Assembly (NCBI GenBank): GCA_018456245.1
Contig: JAGYHQ010000001.1
Coordinates: 134,693 to 198,692, forward strand
Direction of reading: 5' to 3'
Origin: Tenacibaculum sp.
GTDB lineage: Bacteria; Bacteroidota; Bacteroidia; Flavobacteriales; Flavobacteriaceae
Length of the DNA: 64,000 nt
In this document: piece after piece, positions 46,283-51,233 of the stretch
Position numbering within the stretch: the first letter of the stretch is position 1
How the letters are laid out: every line of letters begins with the position of its first letter
The notes under the pieces: model-generated
Database searches by the model: none
Seen by the model: the letters and a program-made list of their open reading frames with translations, nothing else
Told to the model about the DNA's origin: nothing
Program-made: the position numbers and the translations under genes

Positions 46283-48739
46283 ATGATTCAGGATTTGGAA
46301 ACAGCTAAAAATACAGAACAACTTTCTTTTAATGATTTTAAAAACGAAGTTTTAAACGATTACCGAATAGGTAGAATTAGTCGTGAATGTAGTTTATTAG
46401 GAAGACGTGAAGTATTAACAGGTAAAGCCAAATTCGGAATTTTTGGAGACGGAAAAGAATTACCACAATTAGCAATGGCGAAAGCTTTTAAAAATGGCGA
46501 TTGGAGGTCGGGTTACTATCGTGACCAAACTTTTATGATGGCAATTGGCGAGTTATCTGCTCAACAATTTTTTGCAGGGTTATATGCTCATACTGATATA
46601 AACGCCGAGCCAATGTCGGCAGGGCGACAAATGGGAGGGCATTTTGCCACACATTCATTAGATGAAAATGGTAATTGGAAAAACCTCACTGAACAAAAAA
46701 ATTCATCGGCAGATATTTCCCCAACCGCTGGGCAAATGCCTCGTTTATTGGGTTTAGCACAAGCCTCTAAAATTTACAGAAATTTAAACGATTTAAAAGA
46801 ACGTAGCAATTTTTCTAATAACGGAAATGAAGTTGCTTGGGGAACAATTGGTAATGCAAGTACATCAGAAGGGTTATTTTTTGAAACCATAAACGCTGGT
46901 GGTGTTTTACAAGTTCCTATGATTATTAGTGTTTGGGACGATGAATATGGGATTTCAGTTCACGCAAAACATCAAACTACTAAAGAAAATATTTCTGAAG
47001 TTTTAAAAGGTTTCCAACGAGAAAAAGGAACAAACGGATACGAAATTTTTACCGTTAATGGTTGGGATTATGCCAAATTAGTTGATGTTTTTAGTAAAGC
47101 ATCTAACATTGCAAGAGAGCAACACGTACCTATATTAATTCACGTAAAAGAGCTTACGCAACCTTTAGGACACTCTACTTCAGGCTCTCACGAAAGATAC
47201 AAAACAGAAGAGCGATTAAATTGGGAAAAAGAATTTGATTGTTTAGCTCAATTCAGAAAATGGATTTTAGAATTTGAATTAAAAGACGAAAACGGAAATA
47301 TTCTAAAATTTGTAGAGAACGAAGAAGAATTAATCAATTTAGAAAAAACGGCTAAAAAGGAAGTTTCCATTGCTAAACAAAATGCTTGGAAAGCGTATCA
47401 AGATGATATAAAAACTGAACTAAATGAAGCCATTTCTATTTTAGAACGGGTTATTGTTAATAGTGACAATGGCTTATTTATAAAAAAACTAAAAACCGAT
47501 TTAGTTTCAAAAAAAGAAATAATCCGTAAAGATATTTTATTAACCTGTCGTAAAAGTTTACGATATTTAGTTAATGAAGATTTTTCAGAAAAAACAGAAT
47601 TAATAAACTTTATTAACATTAAATTAAAGAGTGCTTATGAAAAATATTCAACTCATTTAATTTCTGAAAACTCTCAATCGCCTTTAAAAATAGAGGAAAA
47701 ACCTGCAATTTATAGTAAAGATAAAAATTTAGTAGACGGAAGAATTATTTTAAGAGATAATTTTGAGGTTATTTTAGCCAAACACCCTGAGGTTTTAATA
47801 TTTGGGGAAGATGCAGGGTTTATAGGAGATGTTAACCAAGGATTAGAAGGCTTACAAAATAAATTTGGAGAATTACGTGTTGCCGATACAGGAATTAGAG
47901 AAGCCACTATTTTAGGGCAAGGTATTGGTATGGCTATGCGAGGGTTACGCCCTATTGCTGAAATTCAGTATTTAGATTATTTGCTATACGCCTTACAAAT
48001 TATAAGTGATGATTTAGCAACATTACGTTACCGTACTTTTGGAAAACAAAAAGCTCCTTTAATTATAAGAACTCGTGGTCATCGTTTAGAAGGAGTTTGG
48101 CACGCAGGCTCGCCAATGGCAGGAATAATAAATAATGTTCGTGGAATACACGTTTTAGTTCCAAGAAATATGACAAAAGCCTCAGGTTTTTACAACACCT
48201 TATTAGAAGGAGATGACCCTGCTTTAGTTATAGAATGCCTAAATGGATATCGTTTAAAAGAAGAATTACCTACTAATTTAGGAGAATTTAAAACTCCAAT
48301 AGGTGTAGTTGAAACCATTAAAGAAGGAAAAGATATTACCATTGTTTCTTATGGCTCTACCCTACGTTTAGTTGAAGAAGCATCTAAAGAATTAGCACAG
48401 GTAAATATTGATGTAGAAATTATAGACATACAAAGTTTATTACCTTTTGATATTAATAATGACACCGTAAAATCTTTACAAAAAACCAATCGTTTATTAA
48501 TTGTAGATGAAGATGTACCAGGGGGAGCATCAGCATATTTATTACAGAATATTTTGGAAAACCAAAACGGTTATAAATATTTGGATAGCAAACCACAAAC
48601 CTTAACATCAAAACCACACAGACCTGCTTATGCTACTGATGGAGATTATTTCTCAAAACCATCAGTTGAAGATATTTTTGAAAAGGTTTACGAAATTATG
48701 CACGAAGCAAACCCTAATAAATATAAGAAACTGTATTAA
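46283..48739 (+). CDS. 2-oxoacid (probably branched-chain) dehydrogenase E1, fused alpha/beta subunits
   Basis: TPP-enzyme features: GYYRD, GNASTSEG...DDEYGIS, GHSTS, FGED, DTGIREATI, AEIQY and IVDED. Confidence 0.9.
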   Translation: MIQDLETAKNTEQLSFNDFKNEVLNDYRIGRISRECSLLGRREVLTGKAKFGIFGDGKELPQLAMAKAFKNGDWRSGYYRDQTFMMAIGELSAQQFFAGLYAHTDINAEPMSAGRQMGGHFATHSLDENGNWKNLTEQKNSSADISPTAGQMPRLLGLAQASKIYRNLNDLKERSNFSNNGNEVAWGTIGNASTSEGLFFETINAGGVLQVPMIISVWDDEYGISVHAKHQTTKENISEVLKGFQREKGTNGYEIFTVNGWDYAKLVDVFSKASNIAREQHVPILIHVKELTQPLGHSTSGSHERYKTEERLNWEKEFDCLAQFRKWILEFELKDENGNILKFVENEEELINLEKTAKKEVSIAKQNAWKAYQDDIKTELNEAISILERVIVNSDNGLFIKKLKTDLVSKKEIIRKDILLTCRKSLRYLVNEDFSEKTELINFINIKLKSAYEKYSTHLISENSQSPLKIEEKPAIYSKDKNLVDGRIILRDNFEVILAKHPEVLIFGEDAGFIGDVNQGLEGLQNKFGELRVADTGIREATILGQGIGMAMRGLRPIAEIQYLDYLLYALQIISDDLATLRYRTFGKQKAPLIIRTRGHRLEGVWHAGSPMAGIINNVRGIHVLVPRNMTKASGFYNTLLEGDDPALVIECLNGYRLKEELPTNLGEFKTPIGVVETIKEGKDITIVSYGSTLRLVEEASKELAQVNIDVEIIDIQSLLPFDINNDTVKSLQKTNRLLIVDEDVPGGASAYLLQNILENQNGYKYLDSKPQTLTSKPHRPAYATDGDYFSKPSVEDIFEKVYEIMHEANPNKYKKLY

Positions 48740-49167
48740 TGGAGCAGGAAACAGATTTTATTTTAAAAGAAATAAAAAAGATAACCTATTTTCTATCTAA
48801 ATTAATTAGTAATATTAGCACATCAAATAATTTTGAAATAGAAAATATAATTAATGAAACCGATGAATTTCTTAAAGAAAAATGGAAATTATCTTTTAAT
48901 GAAATTACAACTTTAAATGAAATTGATTTTTTAAATAAATTAGAAAATTTACCTGAAATTCATCTTGATAAATTTGTAGAATTATTAAGTGAAATAATAA
49001 ATAAACTTAAAACTTCTGAATTACAAAACAAATACAACAAAAATGAATTAGCTAATAAAACTATTGTTTTAATTGATAAAATAAATAAAAATTCAAAAGA
49101 TCTTTCATTAAAACGAATGCAAATTAAAAATAACTTACAACAGGAAGTTCATAATATTTTTAACTAA
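48739..49167 (+). CDS. Hypothetical helical protein
   Basis: 142-aa ORF whose ATG overlaps the E1 stop codon (TAATG). Confidence 0.6.
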   Translation: MEQETDFILKEIKKITYFLSKLISNISTSNNFEIENIINETDEFLKEKWKLSFNEITTLNEIDFLNKLENLPEIHLDKFVELLSEIINKLKTSELQNKYNKNELANKTIVLIDKINKNSKDLSLKRMQIKNNLQQEVHNIFN

Positions 49168-49198: not shown

Positions 49199-49206
49199 TA
49201 CATTTG
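49199..49206 (+). promoter_or_regulatory. -7 element (TACATTTG) for the Cys-rich module
   Basis: TAnnTTTG match 18 nt upstream of ATG 49225; it contains the TTG used by the ORF track. Confidence 0.6.
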
Positions 49207-49224
49207 TATATTACATTTTGTTAT

Positions 49225-49578
49225 ATGAAGTTTACAATTAAAACATTTTTTATAATTATTTTAAGTTTAGGTATTTTATTACCTCAAACTTATGCTTCTA
49301 ATTACAAAATAAAATCAACTATCACTGAAACAACAATGTCTTGTTGTGATGTAGATTCAGAAGAATCTTGTAATTGTTCAACAGATTGCAATATGTATAA
49401 CAAAACATGTAATACAAATTGTTGTTGTTCTAATTTATTGTACCTAAACCAAGAAGTTTCTTTTTGTAAGTTATTATTTTTTGATGTTCATTCAAAATTA
49501 ATAAATACTTACAATAACAGATATAATTATTTATTTCATTCTAATATTTATAAACCTCCAATTAATTTTTTATCCTAA
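49225..49578 (+). CDS. Cys-rich exported/membrane-anchored protein with C-terminal IYKPP motif (candidate metal-sensing arrest leader)
   Basis: 117 aa from ATG 49225: hydrophobic signal, 10 Cys (CC..CNC..C..C..CCC..C), aromatic-rich linker, ending IYKPPINFLS. Confidence 0.7.
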   Translation: MKFTIKTFFIIILSLGILLPQTYASNYKIKSTITETTMSCCDVDSEESCNCSTDCNMYNKTCNTNCCCSNLLYLNQEVSFCKLLFFDVHSKLINTYNNRYNYLFHSNIYKPPINFLS

Positions 49579-49626
49579 AAATGAAAAAATTAACGAAAAT
49601 AGATTTATAAATTAAAAACAATAAAG

Positions 49627-49923
49627 ATGAAAAAAATAATTTTAATATTATCAATAGCCTTGGGAACATTAGCTTATGGCTCTACATCAGTACAAAAAAC
49701 AGAAATAAAATGTGAATGTAAAACAACAGGAGTTTGCACTTGTGAAGAAACTTGTGAGTGTGATTCTTGTAAACATGAAAAATGTAAATGTACTGAAAGT
49801 GAAAAATGTACTTGCAAAGGAAAGTGTAAATGCAGTACTTCAAATTCAAAAAAATGTAATTGTGATGATACAAAAAATTGTACTTGTAAAGATGTTTGTA
49901 AGTGCGGTTCTTGTAAAAAATAA
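49627..49923 (+). CDS. Secreted metallothionein-like protein (20 Cys, three 24-aa repeats)
   Basis: Sec-type signal MKKIILILSIALGTLAYG. Residues 29-96 carry 20 Cys in CxC and CxCxxC motifs, are Lys-rich and contain no aromatic residues. Followed by a terminator. Confidence 0.8.
   Translation: MKKIILILSIALGTLAYGSTSVQKTEIKCECKTTGVCTCEETCECDSCKHEKCKCTESEKCTCKGKCKCSTSNSKKCNCDDTKNCTCKDVCKCGSCKK
49711..49914 (+). repeat. Three tandem 72-nt (24-aa) coding repeats, units starting at 49711, 49783 and 49855
   Basis: CECKTTGVCTCEETCECDSC / CKCTESEKCTCKGKCKCSTS / CNCDDTKNCTCKDVCKCGSC. Confidence 0.85.
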
Positions 49924-49941
49924 TTATTTTTTATAAAAAAT

Positions 49942-49969
49942 AAAGAGGTTCAATATGAACCTCTTTTTT
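49942..49969. terminator. Intrinsic terminator after the metallothionein-like gene (probably bidirectional)
   Basis: aaagaggttc-aatat-gaacctcttt followed by a T tract. Confidence 0.85.
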
Positions 49970-51233
49970 ATTTAATTTTATTGGTAACGGTACAATGTAA
50001 ACAATTTTTATCATTACAATGTTCATTCTTCAACTCAAGTAATGCCTGAGTTTCAAAAGCATTTTTTGCTTCTATTTTTAAATTTGAAAATTTTGAAATA
50101 ATTGAATTCTTTTCAGGTTTTAATTCTTTCATTAAGTTTAAAATTTCATCTTTATTAAACTTACCTCTACTGTATTCATATACATATTTTAAAGGTATTA
50201 TTGTGTTTATAATTAGCAAATCAATAAATGATTTTGTAAGTTTTTTTGATGATTTTTTTGATTCCTTGGTAAACGTATAATGGTTTTTCCAAAAATCATT
50301 CACTTTAATATTTAACAAAGAATAAAAAGATGTAATATCTTTTACTGATAGTATTTTTGAAAATAAATTATGATGTATATGATACAATGAAACCAACTGA
50401 GCAATCCTAATTGTAGGGAAATTATTCGGTCTCATTCTAAAAAATTGAAAATTATTATTATCAATTGGCGTTAATTTATACTTGTGTTGTAAATATTTAT
50501 ACTCACTTTTTAAGTGCAAAAAATATTCACCTTCAATATTTTCTGATAAAAATCCTGCTTGCCCAAACATTAATGCTGATAATATATCTTCATTAAACCA
50601 TTCTTTTCTAACAATTGAAAAATCAACCGACTCTGCTAAACTTAAAAAAGTCTCACCGTTAACTTTTAATCCAAAATTTTTGGCTAATAATTGAAATAAT
50701 ACAGCCTCAAAATCATTATTTGATTTATTTAACAACTCTTTAATTAAAACCGATTTGTTTTCCAATCTTTGAAAGTACAAACGTTCTAACACATTTTGTG
50801 TTATATAATTATTCTTTATTTCGGTAATTTGTTTTTCACATAAAATCCATTTTAATTGCTCCGAATAATTTTTATTATAATTCTCTAAAATATTTTTATC
50901 AATACAATTTTTAATTTCTAATGTTGGCAATGGTTTGTTATTTTTCATAAAAACCTCTGTATCATTTTCATATACAACGTGTAGAATTACGGTATCATAA
51001 TTTTTATCGGTTTCGTGATTATGGGTGTACCAATTAGAAGATTTTAAATGAATTTCAATATTTCCTACCCAAATTTGTCCGTCTATTTTTAATTTGGCAT
51101 TTAAAAAATCTGTACCTGTGTTTGTGTTATACGTACCTGTTTCTAAAATTATTACCTCTTCGTTATCAGCTGTTTTTAATTCAGTAGAAAACAATTTATA
51201 CTGCCATACATAATGTAAAAAATCTTCTTTCAT
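49968..51233 (-). CDS. DUF2851 family protein
   Basis: MKEDFLHYVW, WVGNIEIH, HETDKNYD.VILHVV, RMRPNNFPTIRIAQL and a C-terminal CxxxxCxxC. Confidence 0.85.
   Translation of the reverse strand: MKEDFLHYVWQYKLFSTELKTADNEEVIILETGTYNTNTGTDFLNAKLKIDGQIWVGNIEIHLKSSNWYTHNHETDKNYDTVILHVVYENDTEVFMKNNKPLPTLEIKNCIDKNILENYNKNYSEQLKWILCEKQITEIKNNYITQNVLERLYFQRLENKSVLIKELLNKSNNDFEAVLFQLLAKNFGLKVNGETFLSLAESVDFSIVRKEWFNEDILSALMFGQAGFLSENIEGEYFLHLKSEYKYLQHKYKLTPIDNNNFQFFRMRPNNFPTIRIAQLVSLYHIHHNLFSKILSVKDITSFYSLLNIKVNDFWKNHYTFTKESKKSSKKLTKSFIDLLIINTIIPLKYVYEYSRGKFNKDEILNLMKELKPEKNSIISKFSNLKIEAKNAFETQALLELKNEHCNDKNCLHCTVTNKIK

Follow-up and report, generated by a model that had tools for sequence, protein, structure and literature searches.

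The DNA considered here, hereafter called the window, is a stretch of 64,000 nt from Tenacibaculum sp. (assembly GCA_018456245.1, contig JAGYHQ010000001.1, positions 134,693-198,692 of the forward strand), with a G+C content of 29% and a gene content of the Flavobacteriia type. It carries two small adjacent open reading frames (ORFs) whose products are rich in Cys; all the features of this pair described below lie on the plus strand unless stated otherwise. Gene 1 (49225..49578, ATG at 49225) encodes 117 aa including 10 Cys, and its product is predicted to be an exported, Cys-rich, leader-like protein. Gene 2 (49627..49923) encodes 98 aa including 20 Cys, arranged as a signal peptide followed by three metallothionein-like modules. 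The two genes are separated by an A-rich spacer of 48 nt (49579..49626) in which the scan found no terminator-like site, are preceded by a candidate promoter box, and are followed by a predicted intrinsic terminator (49942..49966), which could act in both directions and is shared by the pair with the convergently oriented DUF2851 gene. This hairpin combines an 11-bp stem with 4 GC pairs and a T-run, and 0.2 such sites are expected in shuffled sequences. An earlier note on this DNA had described the same layout, down to its placement between E1 and an ORFan on one side and DUF2851 on the other, and every element of it is present. The pair is a real, self-contained unit, which we propose to be a metal-sensing and metal-buffering module.

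Comparison with the syntenic locus L001 (89% nt identity; L002 is the same locus from a second source) indicates that both small ORFs are real genes under purifying selection. Gene 1 has a ratio of nonsynonymous to synonymous substitution rates (dN/dS) of 0.33 and gene 2 one of 0.20, similar to the flanking genes, for which it ranges from 0.05 to 0.25. The gene 1 product of L001 is 81% identical to that of the window and lacks two of the 10 Cys. The gene 2 product keeps 20 of 20 Cys, with 23% of the other residues changed, and the spacer is nearly identical at both loci.

The gene 1 product likely begins with a signal peptide, MKFTIKTFFIIILSLGILLPQTYA (49225..49296), followed by Ser and recognized by eye from two Lys, a 13-residue hydrophobic core and T-Y-A before the likely cleavage site. 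All 10 Cys fall within residues 40-81, and most of this region is occupied by a cluster, SCC...CNC...C...C-x3-CCC (residues 40-68; 49342..49428), which we propose to be a metal-sensing motif. Closer to the C-terminal end, ...YNYLFHSNIYKPPINFLS, lies the motif Y-x3-Y-x-Y-x-F-x5-K-P-P-I (49510..49563), the proposed arrest peptide. Its KPP (K110-P112, codons 49552-49560) is indeed there, as had been pointed out, but not at the very C-terminus, since five residues (INFLS) stand between it and the stop codon.

Gene 1 belongs to no Pfam and no NCBIfam family. When 1.84 billion representative proteins were searched exhaustively with a hidden Markov model (HMM), about 12 representatives of its own family were returned at 50% identity; the family is rare. 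Two further candidates, P0006 and P0015, were rejected as relatives, their long multi-stretch matches being translated repetitive DNA. In an alignment of 13 family members (A3), C40, C41, C62, Y96, Y100, Y102, F104, K110, P111 and P112 are invariant, and C51, C66 and I113 nearly so. The C-terminal Y-x3-Y-x-Y-x-F-x5-K-P-P-I is the most conserved stretch of A3, while residues 69-95 contain no conserved position. The length of the part in between is nonetheless fixed: from the last Cys of the CxxxC to the Lys of KPP, 17 of 17 members count 42-44 residues, of variable sequence. The motif ends as (I/L)(Y/D/F/H)KPP(I/T) across the family, and the Pro-Pro is usually followed by 5 residues (range 3-12). 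An AlphaFold2 model built on A3 has a mean predicted local distance difference test score (pLDDT) of 49. It is confident only in the signal peptide, as a helix of residues 2-16, and scores below 50 over residues 22-94, i.e., the mature part has no predicted fold, which fits a protein acting while nascent or folding only with metal.

The gene 2 product likewise starts with a predicted signal peptide, MKKIILILSIALGTLAYG (49627..49680), followed by Ser. Its 20 Cys resolve into three gap-free tandem copies of one module containing 7, 6 and 7 Cys, respectively. Module 1 (C29-C48; 49711..49770) reads CxC-x5-CxC-x3-CxC-x2-C and can be aligned, with no gap, to the one module present in homologs of 49-52 aa (alignments A4 and A6). 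Module 2 (C53-C69; 49783..49833) reads CxC-x5-CxC-x3-CxC, the seventh Cys being absent, and module 3 (C77-C96; 49855..49914) again has seven. The mature protein thus carries 20 Cys in 80 residues (25%), contains no Phe, Tyr or Trp, and has one His, in agreement with the general composition of metallothioneins (low mass, about 20-30% Cys in CxC/CxxC, no aromatics). At the DNA level, gene 2 shows no remaining tandem repeat, and the triplication of the module is therefore old. Among curated families, gene 2 retrieved only a sub-threshold hit to Metallothio (PF00131), with 11.1 bits versus a cutoff of 23 bits (E=0.44), in which residues 28-54 align to model positions 5-31; of ten single-module homologs, one reached E=0.15. 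Gene 2 had no match at E<=10 among PDB sequences, and neither protein had a match in plasmids by tblastn. Two other identities were considered for gene 2 and ruled out: a lipoprotein, as no Cys lies at the end of the signal peptide, and the precursor of a ribosomally synthesized and post-translationally modified peptide with adjacent maturases, as no enzyme neighbor is conserved across genomic contexts. The earlier description of gene 2 as a 20-Cys metallothionein is supported by its composition and its Cys register, but does not extend to its relatives, whose typical gene 2 has a single 7-Cys module.

These relatives came to light when the sequence following gene 1 homologs was inspected, including that on the contigs of nine diverse gene 1 relatives. 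In total, 12 loci with 11 distinct gene 1 proteins were compared, and the latter are only 26-38% identical to that of the window, except for L001. At 12 of 12 loci, gene 1 is followed by a gap of 28-55 nt, a small gene encoding a signal peptide and a Cys module, and then a GC-rich hairpin with a T-run. In the nine diverse relatives, the gene 2 homologs are 49-52 aa long and consist of a signal peptide, MKKYIALAFMAIGLGTTVYG, and one C-x-C-x5-C-x-C-x3-C-x-C-x2-C module (A4). The usual partner of gene 1 is therefore a single 7-Cys module of 25-30 mature residues, to be compared with three modules and 80 residues in the window. In A4, conservation is unusually high in the gene 2 signal peptide too, nearly equal to that of the Cys module, and this peptide may do more than target the protein to Sec.

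The pair, conserved in a few marine Flavobacteria, occurs in at least five unrelated genomic contexts: between E1 and DUF2851 genes in the window, and elsewhere between Na/H exchanger and LplA genes, M20 peptidase and PfkB genes, OsmC and either PKD giant protein or GH16 genes, and TonB receptor and DUF3078 genes. Within the loci fetched, every gene 2 module lies downstream of a gene 1 homolog. The co-occurrence check that had been suggested for the two genes thus came out in favor of the pair. In three contexts (L011, L190 and L195; the divergent neighbors include OsmC and TonB receptor genes), gene 1 is divergent from its upstream neighbor, and the pair must therefore have its own promoter. 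More than one pair can be found in the same source: L010 and L011 are two paralogous pairs of one metagenome-assembled genome, and in one metagenome L002, with its triple module, coexists with L193, a pair whose gene 2 has one module. A scan of 185,579 species genomes with the back-translated C-terminal motif recovered true pairs at three loci of two Flavobacteriales genomes. Several source assemblies miss gene 2 homologs or call them in the wrong frame (L004, 4406-4561; L006, 2608-2763; L010, 4407-4565; L194, 797-949; and also L005), hence the gene 2 family is under-annotated. In the OsmC context (L011, 488-2161 and 3497-3940; L190, 2505-2975), L011 has, some 2 kb upstream, a gene for a multicopper oxidase ending in a type IX secretion tail, which may reflect a copper-related neighborhood or a coincidence.

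A possible link between the translation of both genes was found at the RNA level. Flavobacteriia do not use Shine-Dalgarno pairing, and their translation initiation is tuned by the structure of the start site (PMC6847099). At six loci (L007, L010, L011, L189, L190 and L192), the 21 nt following the Pro-Pro codons of gene 1 can pair with the start region of gene 2 (approximately -12 to +5), with a strength matched by at most 1% of the control 21-mers from the same locus. At L007 and L192, the duplex comprises 11 perfect pairs including the AUG, and L010 and L189 differ within the helix by a compensatory double change, one U-A for G-C. Gene 1 ends pair with their own gene 2 starts at -8.7 kcal/mol versus -7.2 kcal/mol for cross pairs (11 loci, permutation p=0.008). 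A ribosome paused at the Pro-Pro would cover precisely the post-Pro-Pro arm. In the window, the tail arm UUUUUUAUC (49566..49574), in the codons after Pro-Pro, is complementary to GAUGAAAAA of gene 2 (49626-49634). This duplex has the same register as in the six strong loci and reaches -6.6 kcal/mol, a value matched by 3.2% of control 21-mers. Another possible 5' arm, in the codons for N-Y-L-F-H-S (49524..49541), is able to form a duplex of -10.0 kcal/mol with positions 49625-49642 around the start of gene 2, a value matched by 3.5% of control windows. This stem also forms when the window (z -1.9) and L001 (z -2.95) are folded to minimum energy, and L194 has an equivalent one. Altogether, the comparison of loci makes an RNA switch likely in a sub-clade, where it is convincing, and no more than possible in the window, where it is weak.

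The scan with the C-terminal motif also returned about 40 other matches (L014-L067), which form a second family from Flagellimonas/Muricauda, Winogradskyella, Olleya, Lacinutrix and Algibacter. Its members are small, with an N-terminal hydrophobic segment, a C-x9-C-x3-C motif (CENKDKPELNCNGKC) and Y-x3-Y-x-Y-x-F-x5-KPP(I/M), after which only two residues precede the stop codon, and match no Pfam or NCBIfam family. An hhalign comparison of the two families gave a probability of 95% and E=2.5e-8 over the C-terminal 41 columns. Operon contexts of the second family were examined at two loci. At L036 (4411-7002), the gene precedes a TonB-dependent receptor gene, for which TonB-copper is the best model (2e-77, below cutoff). 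At L063 (3422-6721), it precedes genes for MbnP and an MbnH-type di-heme enzyme. CruR-type genes were reported to stand first in operons whose further genes encode TonB-dependent transporters and MbnP/MbnH-like proteins (PMC9426467), the very contents found here downstream of the second family, which looks like the Flavobacteriia counterpart of the CruR/DUF2946 leaders. It is these contexts, for which no selection had been made, that carry the weight of the argument for a link with copper.

The anatomy of gene 1 is best appreciated alongside the two characterized leaders that it resembles. CruR (Bp2923) of Bordetella pertussis, a DUF2946 protein, has an export signal, a CXXC, and an RAPP three residues from its end. 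Between CXXC and RAPP lie 45 residues, a gap that varies by no more than 1-2 residues across over 2000 proteins and on which regulation depends (PMC9426467). CruR is followed by an intergenic region of 162 nt, and acts through Rho-dependent termination in such a way that the downstream genes are repressed by copper (PMC9426467). CutF, encoded by the cutFOG operon of Rhodobacter capsulatus, combines a Sec signal peptide, a CxxxC and a C-terminal proline motif (PMC9973294). Copper-dependent pausing on CutF is reported to open a stem hiding the start site of the next gene (PMC9973294; bioRxiv 10.1101/2025.02.05.636593). CutF-like proteins have been given a working definition, i.e., fewer than 150 aa, a Pro-Pro at most 15 residues from the C-terminus, a Sec signal peptide, and a downstream gene on the same strand after fewer than 1000 intergenic nt (PMC9973294).

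Gene 1 falls within this definition in every respect, with its 117 aa, its Pro-Pro at 111-112, its same-strand gene 48 nt further on and a signal peptide recognized by inspection. It shares with CutF the rank of a small, Sec-exported first gene, the CxxxC, the Pro-Pro near the stop codon, the short intergenic region and, by prediction, an exported metal-handling protein downstream. Moreover, a comparable complementarity between tail and start exists at six loci homologous to the window pair. In contrast to CutF, whose tail has PPP and which precedes a multicopper oxidase gene, gene 1 carries its KPP within a Tyr/Phe-rich stretch and precedes a putative mini-metallothionein gene, in a host that does not use Shine-Dalgarno pairing and, in the window, with a weak RNA stem. 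As in CruR, there is an export signal (a hydrophobic N-terminus by eye, helical in the model), a place at the head of the operon (gene 1 always precedes gene 2), a Pro-Pro a few residues before the stop codon and a fixed distance between Cys and Pro-Pro (45 residues in CruR, 42-44 in the gene 1 family). Unlike CruR, the gene 1 family does not conserve a CXXC and has the invariant CC and C62-x3-C66 instead, has KPPI and not an RAPP about 3 residues before the stop codon, and is followed in the window by an A-rich spacer of 48 nt rather than 162 nt. Sequence comparison thus supports for gene 1 the anatomy of CutF and CruR: an export signal, a Cys motif, a linker of fixed length and variable sequence, and an invariant KPP in a conserved C-terminus.

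On this basis, we put forward with moderate confidence, at about an even chance, that the pair is a two-gene module in which a nascent, exported, Cys-rich leader senses a soft metal, pauses its ribosome at KPP and thereby gates the translation of an exported mini-metallothionein. The unit would be a single two-gene operon made of promoter, gene 1, gene 2 and terminator, self-contained for both sensing and buffering. The Cys cluster of gene 1 (CC ... CxxxC) would bind the metal, most probably Cu(I) and possibly Cd or Zn, while the protein is being synthesized and threaded through the membrane. Given the fixed gap of 42-44 residues, the cluster would be just out of the exit tunnel when the ribosome reaches the Pro-Pro. 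Metal binding would alter the length of the pause on Y-x3-Y-x-Y-x-F-x5-KPP-I, and the paused ribosome, located on or beside the last codons of gene 1, which in most family members are complementary to the gene 2 start, would keep that start single-stranded, allowing gene 2 to be translated. The resulting peptide would be exported by Sec and, once periplasmic, hold metal in thiolate clusters, with the triplicated module of the window raising the metal capacity. Arrest, metal specificity, periplasmic location and metal binding are inferred, and induction as the direction of control is assumed by analogy with CutF. More tentatively, and with the balance tipping slightly against it, the marine Flavobacteriia could host an unrecognized class of Sec-exported 7-Cys mini-metallothioneins, each switched on in cis by a metal-sensing ribosome-arrest peptide.

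Several observations weigh against such a mechanism. Thiolate binding of metals is chemically demanding in the oxidizing periplasm. The DUF2946 HMM (PF11162, the Pfam model only) has no match in the gene 1 product of the window at E<=1, nor in 13 family members at E<=10, leaving gene 1 with no detectable sequence homology to the known leaders; the proposal of a DUF2946-type leader in the earlier note consequently survives as an anatomy of the CutF/CruR type, carried by CxxxC/KPP and not CXXC/RAPP. HYC_CC_PP (NF047658) and DUF6769, uncharacterized small Bacteroidota proteins of similar size with a CC and a C-terminal PP, come from the same phylum, but gene 1 lacks the HYC motif: HYC_CC_PP has no match in the window gene 1 nor in 17 of 18 family members scanned, the member P0009 scoring 17.2 bits over profile positions 38-111, below the cutoff of 28 bits. 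One other member of the gene 1 family matches DUF6769 at E=0.007. The missing fold of gene 1 is weak evidence, the AlphaFold2 input being shallow (13 sequences), and, as the second family had been retrieved with the motif itself, its hhalign match involves some circularity.

The RNA evidence has its own weaknesses. The tail/start pairing of the window is not kept in L001, its closest relative, and both candidate anti-start pairings of the window stand only at the 3% level. The spacer of the window folds no better than shuffled sequences (z -0.37), and no convincing pairing was found at L004 and L195. The arm at 49524-49541 sits behind, not under, a ribosome stalled at the Pro-Pro, and its role is uncertain. 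In addition, U-rich codons for Tyr, Phe and Ile are complementary to A-rich start regions by composition alone, and the pairing statistics overstate independence because the loci are phylogenetically related. Weak or absent pairing in the window, L001, L004 and L195 leaves room for a transcriptional variant of the nascent-chain mechanism, not exclusive of it, in which the pause at KPP would control Rho-dependent or other termination, or mRNA decay, possibly with repression by metal. CruR provides the precedent (PMC9426467). We nevertheless consider this variant very unlikely, as the spacers of 28-55 nt are A/U-rich and very C-poor, and thus poor Rho loading sites compared with the 162 nt of CruR, and as the repression of a metal buffer by metal makes little physiological sense.

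The two genes could also encode partner proteins, gene 1 being a stable Cys-rich metal binder or chaperone, periplasmic or membrane-anchored, that is co-expressed with the gene 2 peptide and loads or protects it, and whose C-terminus is a structural or interaction motif. Gene 1 family members carry 8-10 Cys, and five of these vary little or not at all, which is more than a sensor strictly needs, a single CXXC or CxxxC being sufficient in CruR or CutF. The strict co-occurrence of the two genes fits such a partnership as well as it fits regulation in cis, and CutF-like proteins are stated to have no single common function (PMC9973294). A folded partner is, however, disfavored by a mature gene 1 product whose pLDDT stays below 50, and by a linker conserved in length and not in sequence, which would be unusual for a folded domain. 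Furthermore, conservation is strongest in the approximately 20 residues before the Pro-Pro, the same motif heads unrelated copper-type operons, and in the sub-clade the codons at the end of gene 1 can base-pair with the start region of gene 2. We regard a partnership of this kind as unlikely. Even less probable, in our opinion, is that the gene 2 product is a disulfide-rich peptide destined for secretion, for instance a bacteriocin, a signal, an adhesin-like peptide or the precursor of a modified one, with gene 1 as its immunity, escort or regulatory partner. Its small size, Sec export, richness in Cys and unusually conserved signal peptide would suit such a role, as would the way in which the module changes genomic context like an accessory cassette. 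Yet each module has an odd number of Cys (7), disposed in CxC pairs, the window peptide lacks aromatics and the family has few hydrophobic residues. Among the neighbors of the pair, there is no conserved gene for a modifying enzyme, a transporter or a membrane protein of the immunity type. The triplication fits capacity better than signaling, and gene 1 resembles metal-sensing leaders. Gated synthesis of a metal-binding peptide therefore remains our preferred reading.

Upstream of the pair, the window contains a gene for a fused E1 alpha/beta 2-oxoacid dehydrogenase (46283-48739), whose product joins the alpha (E1_dh) and beta (Transket_pyr/Transketolase_C) parts in one protein of 818 aa. Its stop codon is overlapped (ATGA) by an ORF of 142 aa (48739-49167), which has no family match in Pfam and NCBIfam and is kept in L001 with 71% aa identity and a dN/dS of 0.25. 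In other genomes, this ORF does not belong to the pair. The pair is followed by the convergent DUF2851 gene (49968-51233). The candidate Bacteroidetes -7 box, TACATTTG (49199..49206), fits TAnnTTTG and lies 19 nt 5' of the gene 1 ATG. The motif as such is not enriched in the window, with 120 occurrences versus 122.6 expected, i.e., it occurs at chance frequency, but -7-like boxes recur close to the gene 1 start at four loci (the window, L001, L004 and L193). The assignment made in the earlier note is therefore plausible from the position of the box and its equivalents in L001, L004 and L193, and from these only. A sigma-70 promoter scan of the window returned 13 sites versus 16.4 expected and is uninformative, sigma-70 being the wrong promoter type for the phylum. 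The -7-like box ends 4 nt before the gene 1 ATG in L001 (1440-1460) and L193 (345-365), L001 having a 14-nt deletion in the region of the box relative to the window. This position suggests that the mRNA is leaderless, or nearly so, at these two loci. Within the spacer of the window, a mini-ORF of 9 codons, ATGAAAAAATTAACGAAAATAGATTTATAA (49580-49609), has first bases resembling the gene 2 start; it is probably due to chance, as its ATG is missing in L001.

The regulatory principle at play is known from CutF and CruR; the leader family, its sister family preceding copper-uptake-type operons, and the effector are undescribed. A search of the accessible literature returned no description of an exported metallothionein, of HYC_CC_PP, or of a metallothionein encoded downstream of a CutF-like gene, and the view that the pairing of gene 1 with gene 2 had not been reported is upheld, as no paper describing it was found. 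If confirmed, the proposed mechanism would extend nascent-chain metal sensing of the CutF/CruR type to the Bacteroidota, via families missed by the current DUF2946 models. No arrest-peptide switch would have been described before it in a phylum whose translation starts without Shine-Dalgarno pairing. It would also introduce a new type of target, an exported metallothionein-like peptide as opposed to an oxidase, a pump or a receptor. With about 700 bp, the pair would be the smallest known self-contained sense-and-buffer metal module. Such modules are easily overlooked in annotation. The pair also offers a compact two-gene test bed for metal sensing by a nascent chain across the membrane, for the coupling of arrest and initiation without Shine-Dalgarno pairing, and for the multiplication of metallothionein modules.

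Among metallothioneins, the closest resemblance of gene 2 is to the beta-domain of the vertebrate proteins, as the Cys register of its module is that of the first seven Cys of this domain, with human MT2A as the reference. Both have a high Cys content, no aromatics and growth by tandem modules. The module of gene 2 has 7 rather than 9 Cys, follows a Sec signal peptide and scores far below the PF00131 threshold, and convergence appears more likely than homology. If the proposed role is correct, the window copy would illustrate a growth of capacity by tandem triplication of a module, as in animal metallothioneins. The characterized bacterial metallothioneins SmtA/BmtA and MymT are cytoplasmic, and SmtA/BmtA adopt a Cys/His zinc-finger-like fold and are controlled by a transcriptional repressor. 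Gene 2 shares with them the small size and the richness in Cys and, by prediction, the binding of metal, and differs from them by its signal peptide and the absence of a sequence match. A further term of comparison is provided by the copper storage proteins (Csp), of which the Csp1-type members are exported via the Tat pathway. Compared with them, the gene 2 product is shorter, is predicted to use Sec, has no helix-forming sequence and matches no family. The Csp family consists of four-helix bundles of more than 100 residues (PMC5171941), and its exported Csp1-type copper storage proteins include methanotroph Csp1 and NGO1701 of N. gonorrhoeae (PMC12510493). Exported Cys-based copper storage is otherwise known only for this unrelated family, which sets a precedent for the storage of Cu(I) by Cys thiolates outside the cytoplasm. 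Should the gene 2 peptides bind metal as proposed, they would represent a bacterial form of extracytoplasmic thiolate metal buffering unrelated to the Csp four-helix bundles.

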